Source of the DNA: an uncultured Pirellulales bacterium
GTDB taxonomy: Bacteria; Planctomycetota; Phycisphaerae; Sedimentisphaerales; Anaerobacaceae
Length of the DNA: 64,000 nucleotides
Direction of reading: 5' to 3'
NCBI GenBank assembly: GCA_964507995.1
Contig: CAZDTD010000001.1
Coordinates: 1,348-65,347 of the forward strand
Below the pieces are notes generated by a model. That model saw only the letters and a program-made list of their open reading frames with translations. It did not search any database and was not told where the DNA came from. Position numbers and translations under genes: made by a program. The first letter of the stretch is position 1. Each line of letters starts with the position of its first letter. Positions 21,490 through 46,300 of this stretch are shown here, in pieces.

Positions 21490-21511
21490 CCGTGGTGGAA
21501 ACACGCCTCGC

Positions 21512-21521: not shown

Positions 21522-21535
21522 AAGGAGACGAAATC

Positions 21536-25590: not shown

Positions 25591-25727
25591 CCTGGAACGG
25601 AACGTGTCGGTGGCACACAACTCGAGCAAATCGGTGGGTGACGCGCAAGGATTTGTACGTTTCGTCGGTCCTCACGGAGTCGGCGCTTCGCGGTTCTTGG
25701 CCGAACCACCTAAAGGTGGAGACTCGG

Positions 25728-28319: not shown

Positions 28320-29489
28320 ATGAAGACTACGAGCGTGAAGGCGTCGGGACAACAGGGCTTGCTACTGGCAGTGCTTTCAGGTGCAGTGGCTACCGTGCTC
28401 ACCTATGTCCTGGTGCGATTGGTCACCCCGGACCATCACTATGTCCGAGCCTTGTTCTTCAATCGCGGCCCGATCCAGTACATGACGACTTTCTGCTTTT
28501 GGGTCACCATGTCGATTCTTTTCATCAAGCACGTGCGGTCGCTTCACGAGGAGCAGGCCTACAAGGCGGCCCGTCTCATCCTGGAGGACCCCGATTTCGA
28601 GTTCACCCTGACGTGGACCGGGGCCGACCACGTGCAGCAACGCTTCACCGACGAGGAATTCAGCGACTACCATGACACGCGGACCTTCACGACGGTGATC
28701 AGCGGGCTCGATCGATTGCGCAAGACTCAGAGCACCACGGAGCTCGACGATTATTTCCGCATCCGCACCGAGGTGGCATCCGGGGAACTGGAGACCGGCT
28801 ACGCAAGCATACGGTACCTCATCTGGCTGATCCCCACCCTCGGTTTCATCGGCACCGTCCTGGGAATCGGTTACGGCCTGGCGGGTTTTGCCGAGATCAT
28901 CCAGACGGCCGAGAGTTTCGCCAAGGTCAAGGCGTACTTGCCGAACGTGACGCGACAATTGGGCATCGCCTTCGACACGACGCTGCTGGCCCTGGTGCTC
29001 AGCGTCTTCGCGATGTTGTACCACTCGTGGATGGTCAAACGAGAGGAGCACCTCCTCGAAAAGATCAACGTCCTGTGTCTGGACGGAATATGCCCGCTGT
29101 TCGAAGAGCACAACCGTGAGAAGGAGGAGATTGTCGAAGCGTTGCGCGACAGCACGGAGAAACTACGGACTACCATGAACGGCAATCGGGCCGACATCTC
29201 CGGCGTCATTCTGGAACGCCTCCCGAAACTCATCGCCAGTGAACTGGACGCGAAGCTCGACCAGGTGGGGTCTACGCTTGGCGCACGCGTGGAACAAGTG
29301 TGCGGACCGCTCCATGCTTCGGCAGTCAAGCAGGTTCAGGCGACGGAACAGCTCGGGCCGAAGCTCGACGGCGCGATGGCTCGCGTCGGCGCGTCCCGGG
29401 AGGAGTTGAACGCGCTGCTGGGCGTACTGGTGGAGATTCGCGACGCTCTGGGAGTCTTGAACGATCGGTTGGGACGCCGGCGCGAGTAG
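28320..29489 (+). CDS. MotA/TolQ/ExbB-family proton-channel-like protein with ~150-aa helical tail (stator A-subunit-like, copy 2)
   Basis: Four hydrophobic helices. 'IPTLGFIGTVLGI' and 'LGIAFDTTLLALVLSVFAML' match the MotA/ExbB conserved blocks. Helical C-terminal tail. Confidence 0.8.
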   Translation: MKTTSVKASGQQGLLLAVLSGAVATVLTYVLVRLVTPDHHYVRALFFNRGPIQYMTTFCFWVTMSILFIKHVRSLHEEQAYKAARLILEDPDFEFTLTWTGADHVQQRFTDEEFSDYHDTRTFTTVISGLDRLRKTQSTTELDDYFRIRTEVASGELETGYASIRYLIWLIPTLGFIGTVLGIGYGLAGFAEIIQTAESFAKVKAYLPNVTRQLGIAFDTTLLALVLSVFAMLYHSWMVKREEHLLEKINVLCLDGICPLFEEHNREKEEIVEALRDSTEKLRTTMNGNRADISGVILERLPKLIASELDAKLDQVGSTLGARVEQVCGPLHASAVKQVQATEQLGPKLDGAMARVGASREELNALLGVLVEIRDALGVLNDRLGRRRE

Positions 29490-29512
29490 GTCGCCGACGA
29501 TGGGACATCGAC

Positions 29513-31702
29513 ATGGCAAAAGAGCACATGAGGTCCGTCACACTGTTCGGCACGTCGTTTCTGGACGTGCTGGCGAACACGATCGGAGGGTTGGCCTTCC
29601 TCCTGATCCTCGCGCTGCTGCTGGCAGGCGAGTTGGTCGTCAATGCGCCTCAGATCATGACGGAAGAACTTCCCGCCGCATACCATAATCTCGAGTACCA
29701 AACCTGGCTGGGAGCCAGAGAGGGGATGGGCAGATTCCACTGGAGCTTCGGCGCGGGAACGCATCCTGAAGGACTCAATCTGGATTCCACTACCGGCCGG
29801 CTGTGGGGCAAGCCACAACTGGACCCGAAAAATCCCCAGACGGCCCAGTACAAGTTCTCCGTCATTTGCGAAGCCGTTGGGAGCGACCCAAACGACTATA
29901 AGAAAGACGAGAAGCAGTACCTCATCACGGTCTTTCACGACAAACCGGTCGATCTGTTCCCTCTGCGCATCATCACCGACGCCAATCTGCCCGACGCGTA
30001 CCGGGAGCATTCGTATCCGATGACATTGGCGGCAGAGGGAGGTCAACCGCCTTATTCCTGGTCGATCGTGGACGGCGCATTGCCGACCCCGCTGACGCTC
30101 GCACGTGACGGGCGGTTCGTCGGCGCCCCCGCTACGACAGGGGAATTCCACTTTCAGGCGATGGTTTCCACCAACCGCGGCGAGACGATCACCAGGAGAT
30201 TCTCCCTCAAGGTGTTGTATGCATACCAGCCCCCGCCGCCACTCAAAATCATCACGAAGGAGATGCCCGCCGCGGTCGCGGAGCGTTCCTACAGTTTCTA
30301 CCCGTCGGCGGAAGGGGGAATACCGCCGTACCGGTGGTCGCCGATTGTCGAAACCCCGGCTTGGCTGAAGGCGCTGGGCTCCGACGGCGGCTTCAAAGGC
30401 ACTCCGGCCCTGGAGGATGTTGCCAAGCGTCCGCTCCGCTGGCGCGTGACGGACTACCGCGGCGACTCTGCGGACAGCAACTCGATGGAGTTGGAGGTCG
30501 TGCCTCCGCCCGGTCCGGCGCTGCTGCCTCTGCGAATCAAGACCAAGCAGTTGCCGGAGGGACGTGTCGGGGAATCCTATTCGCTCGCGATCGCGGTCGA
30601 GGGCGGTATGCCGCCGTATCACTGGTCGCTCGGCGCCGTCGATCGCACGCTGGGATTGTCCATTCAGGAGGGGGAAGGCTTGGTGGAAGGAGTCCCGGAA
30701 TCCACGGGAACATATGCAGTTACCCTGGAGGTGTCCGATTCTCGCACAGGCCGAGCCAGCGCGACCTACCAATTGAAGATCCGTCCTGCGCTGACCCCTG
30801 TATCCATTCTGACGGACAAGAGACACTTGGGTCGGGTCGATACGGAATACAGGCTCGCGCTGTCGGCCACGGGAGGGTTCCCTGCCTATCAATGGGCGGT
30901 CTCCGAAGACCGGCTCCCGGAGGGGTTGACGCTGGATCCAACGACCGGGATCATCTCCGGCAGGCCGAAGGCCGCGGGCACCTCCAAATTCGCCGTATCC
31001 GTAGAAGACGCGGAGGGCACGGGACCGTCACAAACGTGTCCCATCGAGATCGAAATACTCACACAGGAAAACGTAAGCAAGCTCGTCGTGACGACTTTGA
31101 CTCTGCCCTTGTTGGTGGCCGGACGCGAGGTGGAGGTGGCGCTCGCCTGTGAAGGAGGCGTTGGACCATACACGTGGAAGGCGGAGGGCACCCTTCCGGA
31201 TGGACTGTCCGTCAGGGAGGGTCAGCTCACTGGTGCGACAAAGGACGCCGGAGATTTCGACGTGACGTTCATCGTCGCGGATTCCAGCGGGCAGCAGGCA
31301 CAGAGTCCTGTGCAACTGCATGTCCGGCGGATGGCGCCCCTGTGGCAGCTCGTTCTCATGAGTCTGATCGCTATCGCGTTCCTTGTCCTGGCCGCATGGT
31401 TCGCCCGGCTGGCTCGTCGGTATCGACCCTTGGAAACGGAGCCGCTCGTGGTCTTGTCGAAGTCGCTGCCGAATGCAAGAGCTTCCTGCGATTATTCGGT
31501 GCAACTGGCCTGTATGGGAGGGACCGCTCCGTATACGTGGCGTTTGGTGAAAGGTGAGTTGCCCGAGGGACTGACACTGGATCCCACCGGCTTGTTGCAC
31601 GGCTGCCCCTTCACCAAAACGCGCGTGAACGAGACCATTGACATGCCCTTCACGGTAGAGGTCCGCGACCAAAGGGGACAGACCGCTCAACAGGAACTGT
31701 GA
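29513..31702 (+). CDS. B-subunit-like membrane protein: Asp-containing N-terminal TM, six Ig-like (He_PIG/'putative Ig') repeats, a second TM, then a seventh Ig-like repeat
   Basis: - ATG at 29513, 23 nt after the MotA-like stop.
- N-terminus 'TSFLDVLANTIGGLAFLLILALLL' has a MotB/ExbD-like Asp at the TM edge.
- Repeats marked by 'GGQPPYSWS', 'GGIPPYRWS', 'GGMPPYHWS', 'GGFPAYQWA', 'GGVGPYTWK', 'GGTAPYTWR', plus a degenerate first copy ('GRFHWSF'). Each is followed by 'LP.GL.LD..TG...G.P'.
- Second TM 'LWQLVLMSLIAIAFLVLAAWFA' lies before the last repeat. Confidence 0.85.
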   Translation: MAKEHMRSVTLFGTSFLDVLANTIGGLAFLLILALLLAGELVVNAPQIMTEELPAAYHNLEYQTWLGAREGMGRFHWSFGAGTHPEGLNLDSTTGRLWGKPQLDPKNPQTAQYKFSVICEAVGSDPNDYKKDEKQYLITVFHDKPVDLFPLRIITDANLPDAYREHSYPMTLAAEGGQPPYSWSIVDGALPTPLTLARDGRFVGAPATTGEFHFQAMVSTNRGETITRRFSLKVLYAYQPPPPLKIITKEMPAAVAERSYSFYPSAEGGIPPYRWSPIVETPAWLKALGSDGGFKGTPALEDVAKRPLRWRVTDYRGDSADSNSMELEVVPPPGPALLPLRIKTKQLPEGRVGESYSLAIAVEGGMPPYHWSLGAVDRTLGLSIQEGEGLVEGVPESTGTYAVTLEVSDSRTGRASATYQLKIRPALTPVSILTDKRHLGRVDTEYRLALSATGGFPAYQWAVSEDRLPEGLTLDPTTGIISGRPKAAGTSKFAVSVEDAEGTGPSQTCPIEIEILTQENVSKLVVTTLTLPLLVAGREVEVALACEGGVGPYTWKAEGTLPDGLSVREGQLTGATKDAGDFDVTFIVADSSGQQAQSPVQLHVRRMAPLWQLVLMSLIAIAFLVLAAWFARLARRYRPLETEPLVVLSKSLPNARASCDYSVQLACMGGTAPYTWRLVKGELPEGLTLDPTGLLHGCPFTKTRVNETIDMPFTVEVRDQRGQTAQQEL

Positions 31703-31717: not shown

Positions 31718-33016
31718 TCAGGGTCGTTCCATGCGCGTGGTCAAAGCGTCGGCATCCTGCTGGAGTCTGTCGAGGCTTTGGAGAATGATGCGTCGGTCCT
31801 TTGCGTTGGGCCCCCAGAACTTCTTCTCCAGCTTCTGGAAGACCGCGATCAGATCTTCGATCTGGTTGGAAAGCGCAATGGCCTGGCTGAAGTCCGTGCG
31901 CATGGCCGCAAGGCAATCCCTGTGTTCTCTCGTCAATTCGTTGACGGCCAACGCAAAGGTCTCCGTGCGCTGACGATCGGCGTTCTCTCGCTCGCTCAGA
32001 TCGCCTGCCAGTTGTGCGACATTCTGGGCGAGTTGCTCGAGCTCCTTCTGAGCCTGGGCATCCGACTCCGCGCCGGAGCGGGCCAGGGTTCGAACGAGTT
32101 GTGTAACCTGCTCGTTGTCGCTCTGCACGCGGGCATCGAGTCTCGTGGTGAGATCCGCCAGAGCATCCACTCGCTGGGATAACGTCTGCGCATCCGCTTG
32201 GGCGCGACGATCCGATGTCTCCGCGGATACTTGCAGACGCGAGATCTCTGCAACGAGCAGTTGGTGCCGGTTCTCCTGGTCATTGGCAAGCGAGGGAACG
32301 ATCTGAGCGAGTCGGTCAAGCTCCGTTCGAGCCTGGGCGTCCGATTCCGCGTGGGAGCGGGCCAGGGTTTGAACGAGTTGCGTGAGCTGCTCGTTGTCGC
32401 TCTGGACACGGGCTTCAAGTCTCGTGGCGAGATCCGCCAGGGCATCGACCCGCTGGGATAACGTCTGCGCATCCGCCTGGGCGCGACGATCCGATGCCTC
32501 TGCGGATGCTTGCAGGCGTGAGATCTCCGCAACGAGCAGTCGGTACCGGTCCTCCTGGGCGTCGGAGGGGGAAGGAGCCGCCTGTGCGACTGAGTCGAGT
32601 CGTTCCTGCATGGCCTCCTGACGCATCAGCGACGACCGCCAGCCACGGGCGGCTGGAATCGCCCAGACGAGAGTGCCGATGACGAGAGACGCCGCGATCA
32701 CCAGAACCGCTGCAAGGTGCATCCTGCCGTCACAGAGCAAGCGCATCATGCGACTCCGTTTCATCCTTTCGGCAAGACGGAGCGCCTTCTGTGACTCGAC
32801 ATCCTGCGGATCCTCCTGCAGGATCTTGCGCCACAGATCGATGGCGAGGTCGAACTGTCTTTGTTGCGCAGCGATCTTCGCTCGCAGATGCTTGGCTTGT
32901 CGCGTCTCCTGCGCCGGCTCGAGCCGATCCAACATCGCCTTGGCGGCCTCGTAGTCCCTCCTGGACGCCAATCCCGCTGCTGCTTGCACGATCGCTTCCG
33001 GATCAGAAACTGCCAT
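31718..33016 (-). CDS. TPR / single-TM / long coiled-coil protein containing a 93-aa tandem duplication
   Basis: - ATG at 33016 with RBS GGAGAG (the ORF-track start at 33031 is TTG).
- TPR-like N-terminus ('DYEAAKAMLDRLEP...FDLAIDLWRKILQEDPQ').
- TM 'LAAVLVIAASLVIGTLVWAI'.
- Duplicated 'LLVAEISRLQ.SAE.SDRRAQADAQTLSQRVDALADL.TRL.ARVQSDNEQ.TQLV.TLARS'. Confidence 0.85.
   Translation of the reverse strand: MAVSDPEAIVQAAAGLASRRDYEAAKAMLDRLEPAQETRQAKHLRAKIAAQQRQFDLAIDLWRKILQEDPQDVESQKALRLAERMKRSRMMRLLCDGRMHLAAVLVIAASLVIGTLVWAIPAARGWRSSLMRQEAMQERLDSVAQAAPSPSDAQEDRYRLLVAEISRLQASAEASDRRAQADAQTLSQRVDALADLATRLEARVQSDNEQLTQLVQTLARSHAESDAQARTELDRLAQIVPSLANDQENRHQLLVAEISRLQVSAETSDRRAQADAQTLSQRVDALADLTTRLDARVQSDNEQVTQLVRTLARSGAESDAQAQKELEQLAQNVAQLAGDLSERENADRQRTETFALAVNELTREHRDCLAAMRTDFSQAIALSNQIEDLIAVFQKLEKKFWGPNAKDRRIILQSLDRLQQDADALTTRMERP
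32040..32560. repeat. Tandem direct repeat, 279-nt period, ~1.9 copies, inside the coiled-coil gene
   Basis: 'gagcctgggcatccgactccgc...' at 32051 recurs as 'gagcctgggcgtccgattccgc...' at 32330. 'ctcgttgtcgctctg' occurs at 32111 and 32390. Offset 279 nt = 93 codons, in frame. Confidence 0.9.
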
Positions 33017-33063
33017 GAGAAGACTCTCCAATAGATGCTACACGAAATTCAAGTCATCGCTCG

Positions 33064-35670
33064 CTAACGCTGGGAAAGCCAGATCCCTTCGGCGCCTGGC
33101 GCCGGCGCCGGCCACTGGCCCAGCTCTCGTACCCAGTGTCTCCACAACTCCTGACGGACCCGGTTCGCCTCCTGCAATTCCTCGTCGGTGATGATTTCGC
33201 CCCGGAGGTCCTCGTCGTTCATCCTGCTGGCGACTCTGTAGGCATCGTTGTAGGCATTCAGTTGCGGCGGGGTGCCTCGGAAGGACCGGGGGAACGTGTT
33301 GACGTCACGTATGAGATCGCAGAGCACTCGCAGGCGGACCGTGTAGTAGAGTCGCTTCAGCGAGTTCTCGATACTGTCGAGGGCCATTTTGTCGCCTCGG
33401 TCCAGGGCCTGTTCGAGTTCGGCGCCGATCGCTTTGAGCTCCTCGGCATCGCTTCCGGTCAGAGTACGTTGGAGCACGTGGAAGAACCGTCGGAGTCGGG
33501 GTCCCACCTGGAGATCCTCCAAGTGGTGGACCGCACCAGTCAGCCTCAGAATATCACGATAGCAGCGCGACTGGCATTCCCGATCGTCTTCTTTCGTTCG
33601 TTCGAGGTTCCTCTCGATTTGAGCGATGACCTCCTGCTCGCGGATCTGCTGGAGTCTCTCGGTTACGGTTGGCGTCGGAGACTCCGCGTCGATTCGCTCG
33701 ACGGCCTGCAGCAACAAACGCCTGCGTGCGAACTCCCGGGTCATCTCCTCGGCTGGGGGATCGTTCAACGCCCCCATGAATTCGGCCTCGTATTTGCCGC
33801 CCACGGATCGCACGCTGGCCTGAACCGTGATCTGTCGGTTCCGATCTCGCTGAAGCGTCACTTCCACGAGCGAACCGGCAGGCAAATCGTTAGAGAGTTC
33901 GGTTCCCAGAATTCTCAGCTCGCCCACCTTCAGGTTGGCATCGCCATGAGGATCGACGGCGCCGAAGAAATGCTCGAGACCTTCCAACACCGGGATCACA
34001 AGCACATCCTCGTCATGGCCGCGCCTGAGGCGACTGACCGTGACGTATTCCCCTGTCTTCTCGGCGGGCAACCGGACTCCCTGTTGCAGCAGAATCTCCG
34101 TCCCATTGTCGTGCAAGCCCACCATCAGGTGCGACGGCAGTACGTCATCGGCGCTGGCGTAGGGGTGCCATATCCGCGGCTCATCGCATGTCACGACTGC
34201 ATGACCGCCCGCGTCGAGGATCCGTGTCTCGAACTCAGACAGCGTGGGACCGGAGGCCTGAATCAGACTCACGTCCGCCTCGAAGAGCCCGGTCTCATCG
34301 ATCGGCACCAATCCGCTCGACCACAAACCGTCCTTCCTCTTGATCTCCACCATCCAGCCATTCCAGGGTTGGCCGTCGCCTTGGATTCGTCCCATCACGG
34401 GGCAGATCGGCACATTGGAGAACGACGCGTACTTGAGGTCGACGCCCAGCTCTGATGGAAGCGGGGGTTTCTTGGGGGTTGGCAACTTGTCGGAAGGGAT
34501 CTCCACCGTGGCAGCGAAGATGGCAGCTCCCTGCGCCACCGCCGTCATGGGGTCAATGCGCGATTCGAGCGGGATTCCGAGGCGGTCGCGCAGAACCTGC
34601 TGGACGTAGGGCGTCTTGCTCGGTCCCCCAATCAGGATGATCCGCTGCACATCCGAGGGCCTGAGCCGGTTCTTGTCCAGGAGGTTTCTGCAGGTGATGA
34701 CGGCCCGCTCCACATCGGACGCGATGAGACGCTCATACGCGCTCCGCTCGATCGGAAACTCAACCTTCACCAACTGCTTCGCGGAATCTTCGAAGGGCTG
34801 GGGACACCTGATCACGGTCCGCTCTTTCTCGGATAGTTCGATCTTGCCCCTCTCGACCGCAAGGCTCAGCATTCCCCAAGCGGATCGCCTCATTTCCTGC
34901 GGGAGGTCCTCCAGGCTGTACTGCTCGCGCAGCGGACGGTAGTCCGGGTCCAGTTTGCGGTGAGTCTCCATTTTGATGTTGTACTGCGGGTCCACCTTGC
35001 GCGGCCCGAGGACGAAGTCGAGCAACTCCCGGTCGAACTTCCGGCCGCCCAGAAGGACATCCCCCGCGTTGCCTTCCGGCAGGGGGGTGCAGCGACCGTT
35101 TCTGATGACCATCAGGGAGATGTCGAGCGTGCCGCCACCGAGATCGAAAACCATCCACTTGACATTCTTGTCTTCCGCCGTGAAACCATAGGCCAGCGCC
35201 GCTGCGACAGGCTCCATCAGAGTCTGCGCAAACGTCAACCCGGCGCATTCCGCGGCCTTGAGGGTTGCCGCACATGCGGGCTGCTCCCACTTGGCCGGGA
35301 CCGTGACTACAGCCGCACCATAGTCGGGATTGCCATCGTCCCGGTAGGCACGCATCAACTCATTGATGACGATCCCTCCCAGCTCCGGGACCGCAAGCAC
35401 CTTGCCTCCCGGGAACTCATATCGATCGTCATGACCCAGGCGGATCTTGTACCCGGTGTAGCCGATGCCGCCGTCGGGCTCCATTAGCATCGCCTGTATG
35501 GCAGCGTGACCAATGAGCAGTCGGCCGCGGTTGCTGTAGTAGACGGCCGACGGCAGTACAGGGTTGATGCCGTCGGGCTTGATCACGCGCGGGCCGTTCT
35601 TCTCCATGACCGCGATGGCGGAATTGCTGGTGCCGTGATCGATCCCGCAAGGAATGAAGGTTCTTCCCAT
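33064..35670 (-). CDS. Hsp70-family ATPase (868 aa) with inserted domain and long helical C-terminal extension
   Basis: 'GIDHGTSNSAIAV' (phosphate-1), 'DLGGGTLDISL' (phosphate-2), 'IILIGGPSKTPYVQQVL' (adenosine motif). SBD-beta-like region 'VLVIPVLEG...ANLKVGELRILG...VEVTLQRDRNRQITVQA'. RBS AAGGAG. Confidence 0.92.
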   Translation of the reverse strand: MGRTFIPCGIDHGTSNSAIAVMEKNGPRVIKPDGINPVLPSAVYYSNRGRLLIGHAAIQAMLMEPDGGIGYTGYKIRLGHDDRYEFPGGKVLAVPELGGIVINELMRAYRDDGNPDYGAAVVTVPAKWEQPACAATLKAAECAGLTFAQTLMEPVAAALAYGFTAEDKNVKWMVFDLGGGTLDISLMVIRNGRCTPLPEGNAGDVLLGGRKFDRELLDFVLGPRKVDPQYNIKMETHRKLDPDYRPLREQYSLEDLPQEMRRSAWGMLSLAVERGKIELSEKERTVIRCPQPFEDSAKQLVKVEFPIERSAYERLIASDVERAVITCRNLLDKNRLRPSDVQRIILIGGPSKTPYVQQVLRDRLGIPLESRIDPMTAVAQGAAIFAATVEIPSDKLPTPKKPPLPSELGVDLKYASFSNVPICPVMGRIQGDGQPWNGWMVEIKRKDGLWSSGLVPIDETGLFEADVSLIQASGPTLSEFETRILDAGGHAVVTCDEPRIWHPYASADDVLPSHLMVGLHDNGTEILLQQGVRLPAEKTGEYVTVSRLRRGHDEDVLVIPVLEGLEHFFGAVDPHGDANLKVGELRILGTELSNDLPAGSLVEVTLQRDRNRQITVQASVRSVGGKYEAEFMGALNDPPAEEMTREFARRRLLLQAVERIDAESPTPTVTERLQQIREQEVIAQIERNLERTKEDDRECQSRCYRDILRLTGAVHHLEDLQVGPRLRRFFHVLQRTLTGSDAEELKAIGAELEQALDRGDKMALDSIENSLKRLYYTVRLRVLCDLIRDVNTFPRSFRGTPPQLNAYNDAYRVASRMNDEDLRGEIITDEELQEANRVRQELWRHWVRELGQWPAPAPGAEGIWLSQR

Positions 35671-35713
35671 GATTGGCTCCTTAGGTTACTCGCTGTCCAT
35701 CCGGATGCGGCTT

Positions 35714-36226
35714 TCATTGAGGTTTCGCGATGGTTCCTCGCCCCTGCTGCAGCAGCCGCCGTCCCGACATGACTACTGGCGACTCGCACTGGATAATGGT
35801 TCTGTAGGCAAGACCCGGCCTGACTTCAGGCTCGCCGAAGGCCCGGAAATCGAGACGACCTTCATCATATGCCTGTCCCGTGACGTCAATGCAACGAATG
35901 TCGTTCTTCTCCAGGGTGGATTGCAGATCGTCAAGGTATCGCTTCACATTCCGTGTTTCTGCACTCTGGATTCCTTCACGTTCCATCTGTCGGATTTGAC
36001 ACCCGATCCAGAAATGATTGTTGCATAGCGCGATGGCCAACTTGTCCGGGATCGTCTTTGGCGGCTCGCCGGGCGCCGACGTCGGAGGCTTCTGGATGCA
36101 GGCGGACGCAAGCGAAAGACTGCGGACCAGAGCCTGCTTCCATTCGCTCGACTTCGGGGCACAGATGCGAAAAGGGACCGGGTAGGTCCGCTGACACACG
36201 CGGATCAGAATGTCAACCAAGCTCAT
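35714..36226 (-). CDS. GrpE-like nucleotide-exchange-factor candidate (170 aa)
   Basis: Located 43 nt upstream of the Hsp70 start on the same strand. The C-terminal 'VTGQAYDEG...YRTIIQCESPVVMSGRRLLQQGRGTI' resembles the GrpE beta-domain pattern 'G..FDP..H.A......V..V...GY....R.LR.A.V.V'. RBS GAGGGA. Confidence 0.5.
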   Translation of the reverse strand: MSLVDILIRVCQRTYPVPFRICAPKSSEWKQALVRSLSLASACIQKPPTSAPGEPPKTIPDKLAIALCNNHFWIGCQIRQMEREGIQSAETRNVKRYLDDLQSTLEKNDIRCIDVTGQAYDEGRLDFRAFGEPEVRPGLAYRTIIQCESPVVMSGRRLLQQGRGTIAKPQ

Positions 36227-36256
36227 CGATAGATTCCCTCAAGAAGGCCAAGACGC

Positions 36257-38932
36257 TTATGTCTTCATGAAACGCAGGAGGACTTCTATGTGATTCCCAG
36301 GCGAGGCGACCAGCATCTCCAGACACCGGTTGAACTCGTCTTGCGACAGGTTCTTCTGCAACAAGGCCAGCAGATTCTTCTCGGATGGCGTCAGGGAGTC
36401 AAGCAAGCGTTGGGTCTCCGGATTGACGCGTCCAGGGGGTGGTTGCAGGCCGTCGTTGTAACCGCTGGTCTTGCTGTTCCTGTAGACAGGGAACCGGTTT
36501 TTGTGCGATTCCGGCTTTACGACATTGTCGAGCTGGCGCCACAGTTGTGCGATCTCGTCGTCAAGTTTCACGATCTGGGACTGAGCCGTGTTTTTGAGTT
36601 GCTCGATGCCCGCCTCCAGGTCCGCTGTCATCTTGTCGATCTTCACTTTGTGGCTGCCCAGACGCCGGAGCGGCCCCGCCACAGCCTGCCTGTACGTGTT
36701 CTCGATCTTCTGTCGATTCTCATTCATCTGTGCCTCAGCAACGTGAACCTCCGCGTCCCGCTGCGCCTGGACCTCGCCCAACATTTCCCCGGCGACACCC
36801 AGGCGACGTCCCGCGACTCTCCTGCTTGCGAAGAAGCCGCCCCCCAATCCCAGCAGCGCTGCGAGCAAGACCACGAACACAGGTAAAGGCGTCAACACCG
36901 TCAGGACAGCTCCCACGAGCGCCAGAGACGCAGAGCCGATGCTCATGTACGGCAAGCAAACGAGGAAGAACCCCTTCCATCCGGTCACCCGAGAATGCAC
37001 CGATGTACATACCTGCCAGTATTCATCGAGCTGTGGCGCGAACTGCTGTTCGATTTGTCTGATCCTTGCGTCATACCGAGCCTTGAGATCAGCAAGCGAT
37101 GCGTCGTGCACGTCCTGCTGGTTCTTGATGAGTTTGCGGTCCTCCTCTGCCTGTTTCGCTACCGAAGCATCCAGCCTGCGGACTTGGCTCTCGCAAACGC
37201 TTCGCATTTGTTGCATCTTCTCGTCACGGTCCCGTCGTACCTGCTTCTGTTGTTCGCGTTTCCCGTCCACCGTTTGCTGTACCTGGCAGTGTTTGTCCGT
37301 GCCGCCGATGCGTTTGCCGGCGACGTCCGCATCCTGAATCTGTCCGTCGTGCCTAGCTTTGGCGACCCGGGAACGCGGCACCAGGACATAGCACGATTCA
37401 TATCGGACGACAAGAACCGTTTCGCAGACGATCTTATGGACCGGAATCAGGATGGACGATTCCGGGTCGGCGGGCTCTCCGTCGAGGAACCAGCATTGAC
37501 CGAGGTCAAGGTCCACCGGCACATTGATTGACCCGTACAGAGACCGCACGTCGCTCTGTACCGATTGCAGAACGGTGCGCCGCGTCGCAGGGGACAGAGG
37601 CAGTCGAGACATCCGCTTGCCAGTAAGTATGGAATAATAGAGCGCGGGTTCTCTCTCTTGGGCATAGTCAATCCGGCTGCGCGTCGCGTCCAGGATGGCC
37701 CCACAGAGGGCATCGAAGCCAGCTAGACGCAGAAGATCGTCGCGCACGTTCAATCGACCGCCCAAGAGACGGTACAACGATTCCGCTTCGCAGATCAGAG
37801 GATCATAGAAATCGGCGAAGTCTCTCCACGTGGTCTTCCCGGTGGTAGAGAACCGCTTGGGCTGTCGGACGGGTACTGTCGCGCCGCTCGCGGAGAATCC
37901 GCAGTACGCACAGGTCGTTGTGTCCCAGGCAAAGGAGTATCCGCATCTCGGACACGCGTAGTCCCCCGCCCCTTCCGGCGGGGACGCGCGGAGAGCAGGA
38001 TCCATTTCGAAGTACTCCTGTCCCTCAGGGTTCTTCGCTCGCTGCACAAGCGGCTCAAGCTGATACTGCGTCAAGCCCTGCACGATCACGGTGAGACGAT
38101 TGTCGATGATTGGCTGGGCCAGACCATAGCTCGTGATGAGCCCTTGATGCTCACGATAGATGTCCTGCCGGCCGGTCCTTGCATATGTCGTGGCAAACAG
38201 GGAATTGAATCCCAGAACCGCATTGGCCACGCCGTACGCAAGTTGGTCGTCCACATCCTCCGGCTTGACCAATGGTGCTCGATCCGCCACCCGGCTTCGG
38301 ATATAGTCCCAGAAATCGCGAGCGGCCAACGTGTTGGCCCAACATGTCAGGCACTGCGTCCAATGCTCCTGAGGCCACTGATTCCGCTGGCCCGTGAGGA
38401 AGTCGATTTCTTCAGTCAGCGCCAGGTTGTGGTAGACAATCGCCATAGCGTGCTCGGTCAACACCGAGCTGTACCCGATGGTCCGTTGATGGATGAGCTC
38501 CTCGACGACAGCCCGATTCGTCAGGCATCCTTCCTTCTTGGCAGCAACAAGCACGGTTCCATCAACGTGCGGCCAGAAGATCTCGCAGAAGGTGCGCCAC
38601 TGCGGACCGTTCAGACGCGAGACGCAGTCCGCGACGTTCTGAATGCACAGATGTGCGTCGTAGCCCAAGCGGATTGCGATGCGGTCCACGGCCGCCGGAT
38701 TCAGCTCCTGGAGCTGACATACGCGTTGGATGGCGCGCTCCAGCGAATCATCGTCGACGTTGGCGAATGTGCCCAGAAATCGGAAGCTGTTCTGTGCATA
38801 TAGACCGCCATCGACGGCAACGCCCATGATGCTCACGCCGAACGGCTTGCTCAACAGCCGAGGAGCCTGAAGCTTGCCATCGATGATCGTACTGCCGGTC
38901 GGTTCATTCCATGGACTGGGCACGCCGCTCAT
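36257..38932 (-). CDS. 891-aa protein: possible degenerate J-like N-terminus (NPA instead of HPD), zinc ribbon, coiled coils flanking a double-TM hairpin
   Basis: - 'NSFRFLGTFANVDDDSLERAIQRVCQLQELNPAA' aligns by eye to J-domain helix I-II plus the HPD loop ('DYYEILGV....EIKKAYRKLA.KYHPD').
- Zinc ribbon 'CPRCGYSFAWDTTTCAYCG'.
- TM region 'FFLVCLPYMSIGSASLALVGAVLTVLTPLPVFVVLLAALLGLGGGFFA'.
- RBS GAAAAGAGG.
- The CDS itself is solid; the J-like call is weak. Confidence 0.8.
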   Translation of the reverse strand: MSGVPSPWNEPTGSTIIDGKLQAPRLLSKPFGVSIMGVAVDGGLYAQNSFRFLGTFANVDDDSLERAIQRVCQLQELNPAAVDRIAIRLGYDAHLCIQNVADCVSRLNGPQWRTFCEIFWPHVDGTVLVAAKKEGCLTNRAVVEELIHQRTIGYSSVLTEHAMAIVYHNLALTEEIDFLTGQRNQWPQEHWTQCLTCWANTLAARDFWDYIRSRVADRAPLVKPEDVDDQLAYGVANAVLGFNSLFATTYARTGRQDIYREHQGLITSYGLAQPIIDNRLTVIVQGLTQYQLEPLVQRAKNPEGQEYFEMDPALRASPPEGAGDYACPRCGYSFAWDTTTCAYCGFSASGATVPVRQPKRFSTTGKTTWRDFADFYDPLICEAESLYRLLGGRLNVRDDLLRLAGFDALCGAILDATRSRIDYAQEREPALYYSILTGKRMSRLPLSPATRRTVLQSVQSDVRSLYGSINVPVDLDLGQCWFLDGEPADPESSILIPVHKIVCETVLVVRYESCYVLVPRSRVAKARHDGQIQDADVAGKRIGGTDKHCQVQQTVDGKREQQKQVRRDRDEKMQQMRSVCESQVRRLDASVAKQAEEDRKLIKNQQDVHDASLADLKARYDARIRQIEQQFAPQLDEYWQVCTSVHSRVTGWKGFFLVCLPYMSIGSASLALVGAVLTVLTPLPVFVVLLAALLGLGGGFFASRRVAGRRLGVAGEMLGEVQAQRDAEVHVAEAQMNENRQKIENTYRQAVAGPLRRLGSHKVKIDKMTADLEAGIEQLKNTAQSQIVKLDDEIAQLWRQLDNVVKPESHKNRFPVYRNSKTSGYNDGLQPPPGRVNPETQRLLDSLTPSEKNLLALLQKNLSQDEFNRCLEMLVASPGNHIEVLLRFMKT

Positions 38933-38969: not shown

Positions 38970-39320
38970 TTACTTTGAGTGCGTACGCTTCTCCATCTGC
39001 CGCACTTTCTTGCAGTTCTCCCATGCCGCTAGTTGCTCGTCGTATGGAGCAACAGTTCCTTGCATGTGGATGCCGATCTTGCGGGCGACCTGCTGCGCCT
39101 TGTAGAACACTCCCTTGGCCTGGCTGTTCTCAATGTCCATGAAGGCCAGGATGAAACTCTTGTTGGGATCGAGCGTCTTGAGGAACTTGATGAAGGCTCC
39201 GGCCGGTGCGTCCAATCCGTTCTCCGGACTTGCCGACCCGTCGTAGAGCGCTACCTGATGGGCCTCACAGAGGACGGATTCCTGCCTTAGATCCACGGGA
39301 ACGTGCGGTTCCACTTTCAT
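38970..39320 (-). CDS. Hypothetical protein (116 aa)
   Basis: ATG preceded by GAGAAGG. Located 37 nt upstream of the 891-aa gene. No recognisable motif. Confidence 0.6.
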   Translation of the reverse strand: MKVEPHVPVDLRQESVLCEAHQVALYDGSASPENGLDAPAGAFIKFLKTLDPNKSFILAFMDIENSQAKGVFYKAQQVARKIGIHMQGTVAPYDEQLAAWENCKKVRQMEKRTHSK

Positions 39321-40390: not shown

Positions 40391-43300
40391 TTACTGGAGG
40401 ACAATCTCATTCTTGCAGATGCGCAACAACCCTCCTTTCGGTTCCGGAACAGGCACGTAGATCCAGCGGTCGTCCGCGACCGCCTGGGAGACGTCACGGC
40501 ACTTGAAGCGAGAGGCAACAGCCCGCGTCCTGCCATCGCGCAAACGGATCGCCTCCACAGGTCGACCGCCTTCGGAGGCTACCAACTTCCACTGCTCGAT
40601 TCCATCGTCGACGACCATCTCGGGGCCGATCCGTTCACGAGGTTGCTCATAAGGCTGCCATGTCCACGTCGACGGCGCCCCCTGTCCGCGGATACCGGTG
40701 AACGCACCGATTCCCCACACGAGCACCGGCCCTTTGGGGAACTTGGTGATACGCTCCAGGTCGAACATCTCCTGCGAGGCGGTCCCGTGACTCGCGTAGC
40801 AGTAGAGTCCGCGGATCGGGACCTGCTGCTTGTTCCAGTCCACCGTCTGTTCCACGACACCGATGGGCGTAGCAGTCAGCAACACCGATCCATCCAACAC
40901 CGCATCGCGGACATCGTCGAAGCTGAAACGCCCATTCCGAAACAGATTCGATTTGGTTCCGCCACCTTTCGCGCCCAAGGTAACGAGCTGGCCCCCGGCG
41001 GTCGCCCGCACCTGGAGCCCGCGCTGGGGGTACTCGTACCACTTCATAACCGGGTCGATTTGACGGCAGTAGGCCTTCTCAAATGCTCCATCGTCGCGGC
41101 CGTGCTTCCACGAGTTGTCTTCCCACACATACACCTCGGCATCCGCTGTCTTGCACAGTATCCGCGAAGGCTTGTCGCGATCGCGGATCACCTCATGAAC
41201 CGCCGGCAGAGCGGGCCTCGGGGTTGGCCCCACGGCGAGAATCGTCTGCGCGAAGAACTTGATCGGGCGAAACTCCCGGTACGAGTATAGACAAACGCCG
41301 CCGTCGGTGGCCATCCAGAACCGATCCCCCTCGACGAGGAATTCATGCACGTCATCGAATACGAACCGTCCGTTCTGGAACAACGGATATGCCGACTGGT
41401 CGGTCAGATCCAAAGGTGCGACGTTCAACTGGGGCTCTCCCTTGTCCATCATGCGCCAATGGAACAGGTCGTTGTCCACGAGCACCATCGCTCGATCCAT
41501 GGGACTGTCTTTCTTGTCCCACAATGACCACGTGTCCTTGGCAGGATCGAAGACATAGCAGCACCCATTGCGCGCCTGTGCGTAGAGCCTGTCTTCACGG
41601 CGGTCGACGTACAGCGAAGTGACGTCCAGCAGGGGCATCAGTCCTGTCGTCGCGCCTGCAATGGCGTAGATGTCGACGTCCAGTCGCATGTCGTGCGCCG
41701 CGCCGCCGCCGGTCGCGTCCGCTAAGGAGAACCGGGTTATGCCGCCGGCCGTCCCAATGTACAACTGATCGTGGAAGAAGGCCATGGTGCGCCGTGGCTC
41801 TCGGATCGCCGCGTGATTCACCTCCAAGAACATCCATGTGCCATTCGTCAGATAGGGGTAATTGACCGGGACATGCACGCGCTCCCGGCGAGGCCGCAAC
41901 CTCACAGGCTTGAGCGAGTCCTTTTCCCACGACCATATCGGGTCTTCGGCAACCGCACACGCCGAGAGGAAGCCCCTGTTGTCCGCAGGAACCTGTCGCC
42001 ACTGGCCGCCGGCGCTCTTGACGTCACAACACAACACGGTGTTGTCACTCGCCCGGCGCGCGTAGATCAGGCGGTCACCGTCTCCCGCCCGAACGAAACC
42101 TATGCCTTGCGCAGGCGCAATGCCGGTCAGTTCGCCGGCGGGCAGCGTCTGTTCGCTTCGGATATCGAACTTCGTCGGATCGATGCGATTGGGGTCGTCC
42201 CAGGCGAACACGGCAACCCCCCCGCGCGTTCCCACCCACAGCGTGCCGTCCGCCAGCGAGGCGGACAGTGGCACATCGTGAGCGAATCGGCAGACGGATT
42301 GAACTGCATCCCGCGTGTTTTCCAGGTCGATCAGGCGGACGATCTGGCGGCGCCAGCGCATGTCGAACGGATTGGTGCCGGCTGTCGACCACCCGCGTGC
42401 GGTCACCTGCCAGGCATCGGGATCATCACTGATGACGTTCCGAGTGTACTCGAATGTGGACCGTCCGGTTTCATCCGTCAGCTCCCACTTGCCGAAGGAA
42501 CGCCCGCCGTCGAAGCCCTTGAGCTGGTATAACCGTTCCGGCCCGTTCACGGCAAAATTGACGCGATTCCTTCTGGCGTAGGCAACTGTCGAGACGCGGG
42601 CCGGTTCCAGCCCGTCGGACACGGCGTCGCAATACAAGTAGCGGAATGCCCCTGTTACGTTGTCGGTGCTCCCCTCGACGGAACGCACATCGTATGCGGC
42701 CACTCCTCCATCGGTGCCGATCAGCGTCAGGTCGTTCGCGTCGCCCGCATATGGGCACACGGACCTGAGGATATCGAAGGTGAATAGCCCTTTCTTACCG
42801 TCGAACTCCACGCGTTTGTAGCGGTCCGCAGGCTCGCCGATCCGGACGCGAACATCAAGCTGGCCGGAGGCTCGTCGCACCTCAAATAGAGGTCCTTTGG
42901 CCACCTGGGTCGCCAGGGTTCTCTCCACTTCGGGCCTCTGAGTCGATGGAATCGACCGCCAGGTCGTGTCGAAATAGTAGAGTTCGCTCGACGTCTTCAG
43001 CAGGAGCTTCGGGGTGTCGTCATAGGTCAGATGAGAGAGAGTCGCGCCGCTCCCGACCCCGGTGATCTTCTCAGGCTTTCCGATCTGTCGCAGATCGGGT
43101 CCGACGCGCGGCAGCAGGCCTTTCTCGGTGATCAGCCACGGCATGTCGGCATACCCGGCATCATAGACGGTGTCGAAGTCGAACCGGCCCCCTTTGACCT
43201 CCGCAGGCAGGATATGCGGGCCGGACCAAGGACTCCCCTGTCCCGGCCGCAACTGGACTTGCAGTTGTACGCCGTCGCCATCCAACTGCCAAGGGGACTG

Positions 43301-46300
43301 CTGGACGAGGCGCCGCTTGATCCGCGCAAACACATCGTCCTTTCCATCGTAGGGCCGCCATTGCCCGTCATGCGACAACACCGCGCCCGACTCGAGCCGG
43401 GCAAAAGCCTTGCCGTCAATCTGTCCGAGCATGATCGCAGGTGCGTTTTGTCGGGCCAGCGAAGAGAGGTCACATTTGTCCGGGTCGATCTGGTACAAGC
43501 CAAACTCGCTGGCGACGTGACAGGCGTTCTGCTGACCGAGAATGCTGTTGACCCGTTCGAAGTCGAACAAGCCGTCGTTGCGCAGTCTGACCTCGACGAA
43601 TGGCTGGTCCGCGACGAGGCGCGCCTGCATCGACATGGGGCGCACCAGCGCTTGGGCTTTCTCGATGCGCCAGGTGTTGCCATACACCAGATGTGCGTCG
43701 AGCCGCGTCACCGCTTCCTTCACGGCCGCTGGATCGGCAGGCGACCCCCACTGTCTTCCATCCCACTCCAACAGACCTGCGGGCCATTGCAGCACAAGCT
43801 TAGCGCCTCGGCCCAGGGGCACGACTCGCACACGCCAGTCTTCCGCAGGGACCAGGCCGCCGGGGGTGGCCGGCGTCACGTAATCCCATGCTCCCGTGGC
43901 GTTGAAACGGAGAACCCCGCCTTTTGTGACAGCCCACAGATTGTTCTCGAACACCGCCAGGTTGTAGGCAGTGTCCGTGTCAAAACGACCCCGGGCGGCG
44001 TCGAACGACACAGTGATCTCCGGCACATTCGGGGTTCTGCCTCCCAGGGTAACCAGTCCCTTCCGGTCCCATTTGATGTCCGCACCCTCATAGAAATACG
44101 GTCTGAGCCGCGCGATTGCCTGGGCGTAGTCGTCTGCAGACGCGGTGGACCATTGCTGCCTGTCAAAGGACCACGCATGATACGGCGGCGCGGTCGCGCG
44201 CAGCCATGTGTCCCGGCTGCCCTGGCTCTGGGGTGGTTCGAGAACATCGGCAAAACCAGCGAACGATGGCAGTTTCCATGCAGGGTCGAGGGAACCGAAC
44301 GATCCGTCGCCGCCGGTACGCGCCATCGTCGCCAAGCCGTCGAGCGTGTAGAAGCAGAGTCCCTTGTCACTTACACTGAACGCCCTCGGCCGATCGAAGC
44401 CGAACCCTCTCTGGGAGAGCGACACAGGCGAAGCGACCGTGCCCAGGACTGCGTCGAGCTCGGTCCCACCGGCGCCTTGGCGCACGCGCCAGTGGGTGAG
44501 CATTTCATTGTAGCGAGAGATCGCCGAGGATCGTGCCAGAACCTGTTCCATTTGGGCCCACTCGACCTGATCCCATTTCTGTCCGCCGTTCGATGACGCA
44601 TAGCACCTGCCGCCGTTGGACCTCGCGAGGAGATACCCCTGGTCGTTGACGATTCTGACGAGATTGGGATCGGTCAGACCACAGCCGCCTTCGTAGATGG
44701 TGTCCATTCTCAGCGAGGTCCCGTCAGCGGTCATCCCCACGGCGCCCCCTGCGGTGGCCAGCAGGAGTTTGTGTCCGTTGGTGGTGACGTCACGGATCAC
44801 ATCGTGGGCGAATCCAAGCCCTCTGCCTCCTCGCGCCGGCAGAATCTGCGGCGTGGCGCCCCCGACCTTCATGGCAATGGCCAGTCGACCATCCGCGGTC
44901 TGGAAAGCCCCTTCGGGCTGGCGGCGCACGGCAAAAACCTCTCCCTCGAATGTGACGGGGTCGGGTTTCGCATAGGTAAAACCAGTCCCGATCTCTTCTT
45001 CCTCGACCCATCGGCCCTGCTGCATCTTGAACGTTCGCACGCCGGCCATCGTGTTCATGTGCAGTACACCCGGCTGCATGGCCACGCGATCGGCGCGGTC
45101 GAACCCGAGACGTCCTTCGCGCATTTCCATTTCCAGCATGCGCTGCCCTACTCTTGCCCTGAGCTTGTACTCGGGTTTCTGGCCGGTCACTTCCCAGTCG
45201 CTGGGGATGCGCCCGGAGGAAGCCCCCGGCAACGGCACGACATCCCCTGGCTTGAGTTTCGTCCAGACGGCGGTCTTGAGATCGCACGACCAGATATCCA
45301 CACGGGATTGAACCAGGAGCATTGCCCTGCCGTCACCGATGTCGATGATCGTTCCGGATTCTCCGGACGAGCACGGCGGAACCTGACGACTCCATTTCCG
45401 GTCCTGCATCGTGTAGTGGTACACGCTGCCGTCATCCAGCAGCGCGACGCAGGCGTTGGCCACTCCCAGCAGCTCGCGAATCTGCCGCCCGTCCGGAAGG
45501 GAGGTTTCAGCTACGCCGAGACTGGTCAGCTTGCCATCCGCCTCCAGTTGACGAAGTCGGCCGTCCGCTGTGACCGCGACGATGGTCTGCCCATCGCTGG
45601 AGACGTCCAACAGCCCGTCCACGGACGCGCCGATCTGCAATTGTGGAGTGACAATACGACTCATCGTCACCGTCCCGCTCTTCTGTCGCGTCGCCACCCA
45701 CAATCCGCTCTTGGCGGGAAGGAACCGGTCTGCTGTGCCACTGAGCTCGCGGATGGCCCAGACATGGCGCTGGGGATCGTATGCCCAGAGTCTGGCGCCC
45801 CGGGTGTCACTGCGCGGCAATAGGAGCAACTGCCCATCGCGCTCGGTGGCGGCCGCGATGTCAAACCGCACGACGTCACGGTCTTCGATCATTCCCGGGC
45901 GGTGTTCCGCAGCCACCTGTCCCCTGGCGTCCAGGAGCAGGAGGTGGCCTTCATCGGTGATCACCGCGAGCCGATCGCCCTCGCTCACGGCCGCTCTGGC
46001 CGTTCGTCTCTCGGGCAGAGAGGCAACCCACTGCTGACTCGTCGCGTCGAATCGCAGCAACCCTCCTGTCTGCGTCACGGCGAAGATTGTTCCGCCGGTG
46101 CCGCCAACCTTCTCGAACCGCGCCACGCCAGTCACGCCGGGGAAGGATTGCCACTTGTGCGTCGAGCGATCGTACGCCACCAGAGGACCGTTCGCGGTCG
46201 TCAGAAAGAGCGTGTTGCCCTGCTCCGCGAGCGCCACGATATCTGCTGCGCTCTTGACAGGCAGATCTTCCGACAGAGCAGGGATGATCGTGCGGTCTCC

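Follow-up and report, generated by a model that had tools for sequence, protein, structure and literature searches.

A stretch of 64,000 nucleotides from contig CAZDTD010000001.1 (positions 1,348 to 65,347 of the forward strand) of an uncultured Pirellulales bacterium, GenBank assembly GCA_964507995.1, hereafter called the window, carries a five-gene module that probably encodes a dedicated Hsp70 machine, tethered to the membrane and distinct from the housekeeping DnaK system. All five open reading frames (ORFs) lie on the minus strand and follow one another with intergenic gaps of 30-43 bp: a small, conserved, predicted cytoplasmic protein of 116 aa that heads the operon (38970-39320), an 891-aa membrane protein with a J-like N-terminus, the predicted scaffold or co-chaperone (36257-38932), a 170-aa GrpE-like protein, the predicted dedicated nucleotide exchange factor (NEF) (35714-36226), an 868-aa Hsp70 (33064-35670), and a 437-aa protein with a TPR-like region and one transmembrane (TM) helix (31718-33031). 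A promoter-like site with 10 of 12 matches was found about 155 bp 5' of the 116-aa gene (39504-39476, minus strand), and a weak terminator-like hairpin directly follows the preceding giant gene; the five genes therefore plausibly form one transcription unit. The hydropathy scan found no hydrophobic segment in the Hsp70, the 170-aa protein, or the 116-aa protein. The G+C content of the window is about 60%, which, like its gene content, is in keeping with Planctomycetota. The nearest named relative of the operon is a Phycisphaerales metagenome-assembled genome (MAG), whose J-like protein is 44% and whose 116-aa protein is 65% identical. An earlier note, made from the letters of this DNA, had proposed a private Hsp70 cycle of ATPase, exchange factor, and membrane-tethered targeting factor, distinct from the housekeeping set. 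The three ORFs of 868, 170, and 891 aa on which it relied proved real, and the private cycle is supported by low scores against equivalog models, a recurrent gene order, and likenesses to co-chaperones that pass specificity and shuffle controls. Loci with relatives of the module are designated below by L-numbers, L001 being the window, L006 a locus of Verrucomicrobiota, and L007 a gammaproteobacterial one.

Pfam family PF00012 matched the 868-aa Hsp70 over residues ~8-390 only, within the nucleotide-binding domain (NBD; residues 1-392, 34495-35670), with an E-value of 6e-53 and 180 bits against a cut-off of 20.6. Comparison with DnaK NBD structures in PDB gave E 1e-38 for the single sequence and 1e-101 with the family profile. 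The ATPase motifs, which the earlier note had read as intact, are kept throughout the family: D11, K75, E153, D176, T181, and D183, mapped by alignment to D8, K70, E171, D194, T199, and D201 of DnaK, are invariant in 49 of 49 aligned members. The DnaK equivalog models were not reached (184 bits versus 822 for TIGR02350 and 175 versus 648 for NF001413), and the HscA, YegD, and HscC-type models likewise scored far under their cut-offs. Because of these low scores, the 868-aa protein is judged from its sequence to be neither DnaK nor HscA nor YegD. No canonical dnaK, dnaJ, or grpE gene was found elsewhere in the 64-kb window. About 65 full-length relatives (850-885 aa, 35-61% identity) were obtained in a word-indexed protein search, as well as remoter ones of 810-850 aa; they belong to Anaerohalosphaeraceae, Pyrinomonadaceae, Verrucomicrobiota, Bryobacteraceae, Gammaproteobacteria, Frankia, Omnitrophota, and Kiritimatiellae. 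The members align over 97%-99% of the query, indicating full-length conservation. At L006 (1-2588), two more Hsp70-family genes, encoding proteins of 799 aa (with a zinc ribbon) and 611 aa (with SEC-C), lie just 5' of the module, and this locus contains three Hsp70 paralogues within 12 kb.

The family profile matches canonical DnaK in two stretches that keep the order of the domains, the NBD and then the beta part of the substrate-binding domain (SBD-beta). The SBD-beta that the earlier note had recognised is probably present, with the expected position and order (residues ~511-625, 33796-34140), but the match itself is weak, covering profile positions 494-600 with 12.7 bits and a conditional E-value of 7e-6 in a five-sequence search. 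Just before it stands a motif, L-[AP]-[NS]-S-L-x-V-[AG], that resembles TPLSLGIE of DnaK. The NBD and SBD-beta are separated by a family-specific insert of about 115 residues (~393-510, 34141-34494), which appears as a gap in the alignment to DnaK and is conserved across the family. The canonical DVLLLD linker is absent, and the insert stands in its place. No PDB or Pfam match was found for the insert; its pattern G.V.G....G..VEI.R.DG.WSSG..P.D..G.F recalls, by eye, transthyretin or carboxypeptidase-regulatory-like beta sandwiches. After SBD-beta, the alignment to DnaK runs on faintly into the lid, and the C-terminal region (residues ~626-868, 33064-33795) is a probable lid with an extension, the tails of which are not conserved among members. 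The C-terminus is longer, as had been noted, where about 250 aa were read as an extra helical part, but the extra length of the Hsp70 is not all C-terminal: about 115 residues sit between the NBD and SBD-beta. In DnaK, R167, N170, and T173 are the residues that read the HPD motif of the J domain, as established in work on DnaK and DnaJ. At the position of R167, 36 of the 49 family sequences have proline; at that of N170, 46 have Q or M, and at that of T173, 45 have V or I. These substitutions indicate that the canonical J-domain interface is lost on the Hsp70.

The 170-aa protein alone gave no usable match in Pfam, NCBIfam, PADLOC, or PDB single-sequence searches, and a word-indexed search found just three close relatives. 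In five further loci from other phyla, a gene for a protein of 165-196 aa lies immediately 5' of the long Hsp70 gene, and the products align with the 170-aa protein. A search with that alignment yielded 18 proteins, one of them named 'Nucleotide exchange factor GrpE' by NCBI, and the top PDB match of a 17-member profile was Geobacillus GrpE (4ANI_A, E 0.076). The AlphaFold2 (AF2) model has a predicted local distance difference test score (pLDDT) of 82, rising above 90 for residues 61-169, and consists of helices 61-83 and 89-107 followed by a beta domain with strands within 110-169; in the N-terminal part there are short low-confidence helices 3-12 and 26-42 and a disordered segment 43-54. A conserved N-terminal motif, RQ..FP..FRI, characterizes the family. 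A Foldseek search of PDB with this model placed GrpE at all of ranks 1-12 (from E. coli, M. tuberculosis, Geobacillus, Thermus, and human GrpEL1), with E-values of 1e-3 to 6e-2 and probabilities of 0.87-1.0, and the next match had E >1. With hhalign, the family matched two GrpE sequences, which were validated against PF01025, with P 6.4e-5; the 73 aligned columns run from the last helix up to the C-terminus. Cross-controls gave 0.1%-0.2% probability, and the maximum score of 40 column shuffles was 17.7 versus 36.4 for the real alignment. The suggestion that the C-terminus of this protein reads like the GrpE beta domain therefore holds, as shown by the Foldseek ranking and the hhalign match. 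Predicted structure and profile comparison confirm the C-terminal half of the 170-aa protein, a helix pair and a compact beta domain, as GrpE-like. The protein would perform nucleotide exchange on its Hsp70, which the strict adjacency of the two genes supports indirectly.

For the 891-aa membrane protein, single-sequence searches of Pfam, NCBIfam, PADLOC, and PDB gave nothing usable, while an exhaustive search identified 221 representatives of its family with homology blocks at residues ~22-300 and ~362-880. The AF2 model (pLDDT 89, predicted template modelling score 0.72) has an all-alpha head that extends to residue ~300. The N-terminal consensus of the family is D.YARNGFR.LG.PA......LE...QR.R...KL.P..A....I..GYD....(11)V..L..PR.RL..ELFWPH. 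Alignment of 37 family N-termini with seven J domains by hhalign gave a probability of 84% and P 7.2e-6, with 68 columns spanning helices I to IV; the reference sequences were validated against PF00226. Four cross-controls gave 0.1%-0.2%, and the reversed alignment and the best of 40 shuffles scored 13.1 and 14.4, respectively, versus 33.5 for the real one. In this register, and with the helix boundaries of DnaJ, AF2 helices 49-53, 61-77, 100-108, and 110-118 correspond to J helices I, II, III (shortened), and IV, with an extra helix at 79-85. A PDB profile search with the N-terminal profile returned no J-domain chain. The earlier note had aligned this segment with J helices I and II and placed NPA where HPD should be. 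The hhalign match and the lack of HPD agree with this, but the HPD position corresponds to E76-L77-N78, two residues before NPA, and is unconserved in 65 sequences. A J-like fold without HPD is thus likely at the N-terminus of the 891-aa protein, in a subdomain of residues ~45-122 (38567-38800), as judged from profiles and predicted helices.

The zinc ribbon and the double-TM hairpin reported for the same protein were both found. The ribbon (residues ~324-348, 37889-37963) matches Zn_ribbon_3 of Pfam weakly (E 0.04) and has CxxC pairs at residues 327 (CPRC) and 341 (CAYC); it is an insert in some family members, present in the window and L002 and absent from L004 and L006. The second homology block begins with a middle domain (residues ~362-540, 37313-37849), modeled as helices and a beta hairpin at 494-518, in which Cys480 is invariant (C-[WFY]-F), as are P519 and S521 of a P-R-S motif, with R520 kept in 63 of 65 sequences. 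Then follows the helical stalk with the TM hairpin at its tip (36536-37297). According to AF2 and the hydropathy scan, the hairpin occupies residues 654-704 between antiparallel stalk helices 546-649 and 686-799, the helix leading into it being 104 residues long and the returning one ~95 residues. With a TM hairpin between two long helices, both ends of the modeled protein would therefore lie on the cytoplasmic side, the same as the Hsp70. The nearest Foldseek matches of the stalk are alpha-pore-forming toxins AhlB/SmhB and chemoreceptor hairpins (probability 0.7-0.84, E-values non-significant). The full-length family profile matched only TM and coiled-coil look-alikes in PDB, such as ATP synthase b and apolipoproteins, and these matches were treated as compositional. 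The small helical C-terminal domain (residues ~800-891, 36260-36535; AF2 helices 808-890) is seen in a 65-sequence consensus and is preceded by the conserved motif KPES.K..FP.Y..A..GY.DG..PS. A J-like paralogue with an N-terminal TIR domain (PF13676, E 1.5e-27) and without the TM-hairpin stalk is encoded at L030 (P0196, 2399-4621); it lies between two further paralogues, three in tandem, together with a homologue of the 116-aa protein.

The operon is completed by the 437-aa and 116-aa proteins. In the former, the TPR-like N-terminal region is conserved, with 11 invariant columns in the first 67 residues, and a single TM helix spans residues 102-129. Its outer tail is variable: a coiled coil in the window and an OmpA-like domain (PF00691) in L004, and the L008 protein aligns over that tail. 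Because the L004 tail is OmpA-like, the TPR region is assigned to the cytoplasm. The neighbouring coiled-coil protein, regarded in the earlier note as something that the Hsp70 might load or remodel, is thus a conserved partner in its TPR-like region and TM helix, but not in its coiled-coil tail. For the 116-aa protein, no Pfam or PDB relative was found. Its orthologues, 38%-65% identical, are encoded directly 5' of the J-like gene in L002, L004, L011, and L030, and 25 columns, including C18 and H85, are invariant in five sequences.

Synteny of the Hsp70, GrpE-like, and J-like genes in other genomes, which the earlier note had suggested as a check, was found: the triad recurs across unrelated phyla, and the operon is present in at least seven bacterial phyla. 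The order J-like, GrpE-like, Hsp70, TPR-TM is present in every locus long enough to show it (L001, L002, L004, L006, L008, L013, L024, and L027), and the TPR-TM gene is 3' of Hsp70 in L002, L004, L006, L007, L008, L024, and L027. The J-like gene precedes the GrpE-like and Hsp70 genes in eight independent loci and on a Haliscomenobacter plasmid, and the triad order was seen in Planctomycetota, Acidobacteriota, Verrucomicrobiota, Actinomycetota, and Bacteroidota. The GrpE-like gene lies immediately 5' of the long Hsp70 gene in six phyla, preceded by the J-like gene in all loci except one of Gammaproteobacteria. Since the order recurs in unrelated phyla, the gene linkage is more than chance. A scan of GTDB species genomes with the degenerate DNA of the ELFWPH motif gave 20 loci, 11 of them true, from Phycisphaerales, Planctomycetota, Terracidiphilus, Thermoanaerobaculia, Bryobacterales, Thiotrichales, other Gammaproteobacteria, a Rickettsiales-labelled MAG, Verrucomicrobiota, and an unclassified bacterial MAG. 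Plasmid pHALHY02 of Haliscomenobacter hydrossis (Bacteroidota; L029, NC_015512.1, 8539-16064) bears the same triad under misleading RefSeq names: a 'CFI-box-CTERM' protein of 571 aa, matched at its N-terminus by the J-like profile (E 7e-6), a 'septum formation initiator' of 299 aa, matched at its C-terminus by the GrpE-like profile (E 2e-9), and an 841-aa 'Hsp70 family protein' (E 1e-154). Genes for an AAA ATPase and a TerB protein come next, and brxL and pglZ of BREX flank the set. It was the only plasmid record found in the phage and plasmid searches, and no phage record matched the module. The partner proteins are annotated as hypothetical or misnamed, and current family models miss them.

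Convergent to the operon in the window are three plus-strand genes that also accompany the module in L002 and L004. The first encodes a Ser/Thr kinase with two FGE-sulfatase (FGS) domains (25458-28259; Pkinase E 4e-36, FGE-sulfatase E 1e-57), its true start probably lying inside this ORF, the second a MotA/ExbB-family channel protein (28320-29489; PF01618, E 6e-8), and the third a membrane protein with He_PIG Ig repeats (29510-31702; PF05345, E 2e-55). In L004, the genes of the Hsp70 set, the kinase-FGE, MotA/ExbB, and He_PIG proteins are joined in a 10-gene operon on one strand. The N-terminal TM motif of the He_PIG protein, SFLDV.ANTIGGL.FLL (29510-29650), has an Asp that is invariant in the window, L002, and L004, and this helix resembles, by eye, the proton-relay signature of ExbD/TolR/MotB. 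The MotA/ExbB and He_PIG proteins may constitute a stator-like proton-driven unit whose arm is the chain of Ig domains. Genes for a Clp_N protein and a ClpB/FtsH-like fusion lie 3' of the module in L002 and L006, and an AAA ATPase gene is found there in L007 and L029. Since such Clp_N and ClpB/FtsH-like genes directly follow the module in these two loci, minus-strand genes at 9404-15717 of the window may belong to the same functional set; they encode an FHA and Clp_N protein (9404-11257), a ClpB/ClpA-like double AAA+ protein (11315-13711), a zf-HC2 anti-sigma-like protein (13812-14759), and an ECF-type sigma factor (14650-15717). The region 16178-25276 may represent a paralogous envelope module and includes, on the plus strand, a second MotA/ExbB gene (17221-18318) with unannotated neighbours, a TPR protein gene (19639-21489), and a gene for a 1275-aa protein with a weak DUF1598 match (21449-25276).

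Near the start of the window, an SNF2 helicase with DUF3670 (133-2628), an IS21-type IstB (4275-5039) and transposase (5036-6568), a phage-type integrase (7225-8022), and a DDE transposase (8108-9175) make up a recombination-prone flank of the type seen around defence islands. On the other side of the operon, the region 40391-63159 appears to be a beta-propeller MoxR-vWA ternary conflict system of the type described by Kaur et al. 2020 (PMC7159879). It comprises a giant 3216-aa protein with one N-terminal TM helix and Kelch-like repeats (40391-50041, minus strand), a bpMoxR AAA+ ATPase (58214-59464, minus strand; PF20030, E 7e-47), a vWA protein (62398-63159, plus strand), and large ORFs without a Pfam match (50163-52334, 53209-56193, 56300-58183, and 59505-61262). 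The giant protein, the other client considered in the earlier note, was rejected in this role because it is missing from every other locus and fits the adjacent MoxR-vWA-propeller set.

In the proposed mechanism, the 868-aa Hsp70 would be an active ATPase with SBD-beta and an insert in place of the interdomain linker, and the shortened GrpE of 170 aa would reset its nucleotide state. The 891-aa protein, held in the inner membrane by its TM hairpin, would display a cytoplasmic all-alpha head whose J-like part has no HPD, and this head would dock the Hsp70 at the membrane. Since both sides have lost the HPD/R167 contact, coupling to the ATPase would be non-canonical or would be driven by the substrate or by the insert. 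The earlier view that a J-like domain of this kind would tether the Hsp70 rather than stimulate it is supported in spirit, considering the unconserved HPD position on one side and the loss of R167, N170, and T173 on the other. The TPR-TM protein would act as a second anchor reaching the periplasm or cell wall, with its TPR region binding the Hsp70 or a partner. As for the target, we infer that the machine most likely acts on the membrane-hairpin protein itself and on envelope partners, remodelling them or gating their conformation or oligomeric state; the partners would be the MotA/ExbB and ExbD-like Ig proteins, the kinase-FGS sensor, and, in some genomes, an AAA+ unfoldase. An envelope or invader signal would be the trigger.

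Several results weigh against a dedicated membrane-tethered Hsp70 cycle. The threshold of PF01025 was not reached: the window protein had no match, and the best E-value, 0.07, was obtained for two of 17 members of its family. The long N-terminal dimerisation and thermosensing helix of GrpE is missing in the AF2 model. None of the 37 N-terminal fragments of the 891-aa family matched PF00226 even at E 10, and Foldseek with the whole model of this protein returned no J domain, the results being dominated by helical repeats and hairpins with a best E-value of 0.02. At L007, the J-like gene does not adjoin the other two. Genes for the kinase, MotA, and He_PIG proteins were seen beside the module in three loci only, and the AAA+ partners vary. 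The SBD-beta match, at 12.7 bits, is weak.

The five genes could instead be the housekeeping dnaK-dnaJ-grpE set of a divergent organism, in agreement with the absence of any other Hsp70, DnaJ, or GrpE in the 64-kb window. Because of the family scores, such as 184 bits versus the TIGR02350 cut-off of 822, and the architecture, this is excluded with hardly any residual doubt: gene order, protein sizes, membrane anchoring, and the absence of HPD and of the linker all differ from the housekeeping set. Moreover, members of the Hsp70 family are found on a plasmid, beside other Hsp70 genes, and in Frankia, and genomes with such members, Frankia among them, presumably also carry a canonical dnaK. The long Hsp70 might also resemble Hsp110 in function and serve as an NEF or disaggregation enhancer of the housekeeping DnaK, the flanking proteins being scaffolds and not co-chaperones. 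The loss of the canonical linker and of J-interface residues is shared with Hsp110, and bacterial DnaK derivatives, reported to co-exist always with a bona fide DnaK, have been proposed as its Hsp110-like co-chaperones (PMC13580251). But the catalytic residues and, probably, SBD-beta are kept, and a GrpE-like gene stands directly 5' of the Hsp70 gene in every locus, which a pure NEF would not need; because this dedicated factor is always present, a helper role is improbable.

Two further explanations concern the biological role. The module may be a chaperone-gated conflict (immune or abortive-infection) system, in which the Hsp70/GrpE pair is a threshold device restraining a membrane-inserting or TIR effector that is freed by a kinase-FGS signal; this overlaps with the dedicated Hsp70 machine but commits it to defence. 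Consistent with it are the TIR domain on a J-like paralogue (PF13676, E 1.5e-27) among three tandem paralogues accompanied by the 116-aa protein, the position of the Haliscomenobacter triad on a plasmid beside BREX brxL and pglZ, and the location of the module in the window next to the bpMoxR-vWA-propeller system, insertion-sequence elements, and an integrase. The hairpin stalk is weakly similar to the AhlB/SmhB pore formers, and the spread over phyla is patchy, with Hsp70 identities of 27%-47%. FGS domains and chaperone pairs have been read as hallmarks of such systems (Kaur et al. 2020, PMC7159879), and DnaK-like domains fused to immune protease-effector modules (PMC12642450) set a precedent for Hsp70 parts in defence, although in a different system. 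However, no PADLOC-DB v2 model matched, apart from a 23-bit partial NBD match to PDC-M61B and coiled-coil-type matches to ZorA/LeoBC, and the module was found in one plasmid record and in no phage record. The TIR example is single, defence genes are adjacent in two loci only, and the core module has no enzymatic effector. Altogether, a defence function appears possible but doubtful. Membership in Zorya was rejected, as the ZorA matches concern the MotA domain or coiled coils only. Alternatively, the MotA/ExbB and ExbD-like Ig proteins would form a proton device of the Tol/Ton/stator type, and the Hsp70 set would be its cytoplasmic assembly and quality-control chaperone, with no role in conflict. 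The MotA/ExbB gene and that of its partner with the invariant TM Asp are co-operonic with the set in L004 and adjacent to it in the window and L002; the TPR-TM protein of L004 has an OmpA-like peptidoglycan-binding tail, over which the L008 protein aligns, and ECF sigma and anti-sigma genes are nearby. But the triad also occurs without MotA and He_PIG genes in its flanks, at L006, L007, L008, and L029, and a TIR-fused paralogue fits poorly, so that we consider this role rather unlikely. What the two proposals do not cover is left to an undefined function in envelope stress.

Returning to the dedicated membrane-tethered machine, a more speculative version, to which we give limited credence, is that it represents an Hsp70-centred counterpart of the MoxR-vWA ternary systems. 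The private cycle and the HPD-less adaptor would keep a hairpin (or TIR) effector latent, and it would be fired when the kinase-FGS or MotA/ExbB protein reports invasion or envelope damage. If true, a complete Hsp70 chaperone cycle of its own would, for the first time, be seen to gate an immune-type system.

No description of this Hsp70 operon was found in the literature. Bacterial DnaK paralogues are numerous and form a largely unexplored 'dark matter', and it has been proposed that they are mostly helpers of DnaK (FEBS J 2026 review, PMC13580251). The family described here argues against the helper-only view for at least one large clade, with its full catalytic core and its own GrpE-type, J-like, and TPR partners. 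An uncharacterised bacterial Hsp70 paralogue thereby gains a testable set of partners, and the five-gene operon offers a defined protein set for reconstitution. The module may also be regarded as a natural experiment in the rewiring of Hsp70 allostery, since HPD and R167/N170/T173 are lost and the linker is replaced by a new domain. The ties to MotA/ExbB motors, kinase-FGS sensors, AAA+ unfoldases, and a TIR paralogue point to an envelope-associated stress or immune function.

As in the DnaK-DnaJ-GrpE system, the genes of the module are linked and encode a catalytically intact Hsp70 ATPase, here with a probable SBD-beta, a protein with the helix pair and beta domain of GrpE, and a partner with a probable J-like four-helix region. 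In contrast to DnaK, its Hsp70 is 868 aa long, has a ~115-aa insert instead of the DVLLLD linker and a longer C-terminus, and has lost R167/N170/T173. The J-like domain, unlike that of DnaJ, has no HPD and belongs to an 891-aa membrane protein without the Zn-finger or C-terminal client-binding domains, and the 170-aa protein differs from GrpE by the absence of the long N-terminal helix. The TPR-TM protein is an extra partner, and none of the three proteins reaches the cut-offs of the DnaK, DnaJ, or GrpE family hidden Markov models. Membrane-tethered J or J-like proteins that recruit Hsp70 are also known from the mitochondrial import motor, as Pam18/Pam16 (Tim14/Tim16) with mtHsp70 and Mge1, where a GrpE-type NEF acts on the same Hsp70, and from ARC6/ZipN; in Pam16 and ARC6, the HPD is degenerate (PMC10939069). 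However, the module shows no sequence relationship to these proteins beyond the J-like fold, has no translocon, and is set at a bacterial inner membrane with a long helical stalk; among the genes of the Hsp70 operon, none was found for an HPD-bearing partner like Pam18.

A special Hsp70 paralogue with a dedicated membrane-anchored J-type partner encoded nearby is represented in E. coli by HscC with DjlB/DjlC. HscC has about 560 aa and is reportedly independent of GrpE, and DjlB and DjlC keep HPD. In contrast to HscC, which is discussed in PMC13580251, the Hsp70 of the module has its own GrpE-like factor and a J-like partner without HPD. A related theme in conflict systems is the HSP70-GrpE pair of GAP1-N2 GTPase systems from actinobacteria, planctomycetes, and verrucomicrobia, whose defining components are GAP1-N2 GTPases and proteins with FNIII repeats (Kaur et al. 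2020, eLife, PMC7159879). There, HSP70 and GrpE are likewise tied to a DnaJ/TPR-module protein and kinases near the membrane. However, the partners in the module are not recognised by the Pfam GrpE and DnaJ models, and no GTPase or FNIII match in Pfam was found among the window ORFs scanned or in the annotated flanks of L002, L004, L006, L007, and L008. Hsp110/Grp170, like the module protein, is an elongated derivative of Hsp70 in which the linker has diverged, residues are inserted near the SBD, and responsiveness to J domains is lost, but it is a eukaryotic NEF for Hsp70, has no GrpE partner, and carries the insertion inside SBD-beta, whereas the insert of the module protein precedes SBD-beta. 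What is new in the operon is therefore a self-contained membrane-tethered Hsp70 cycle with rewired co-chaperone contacts, a combination that sets it apart from every system compared here.

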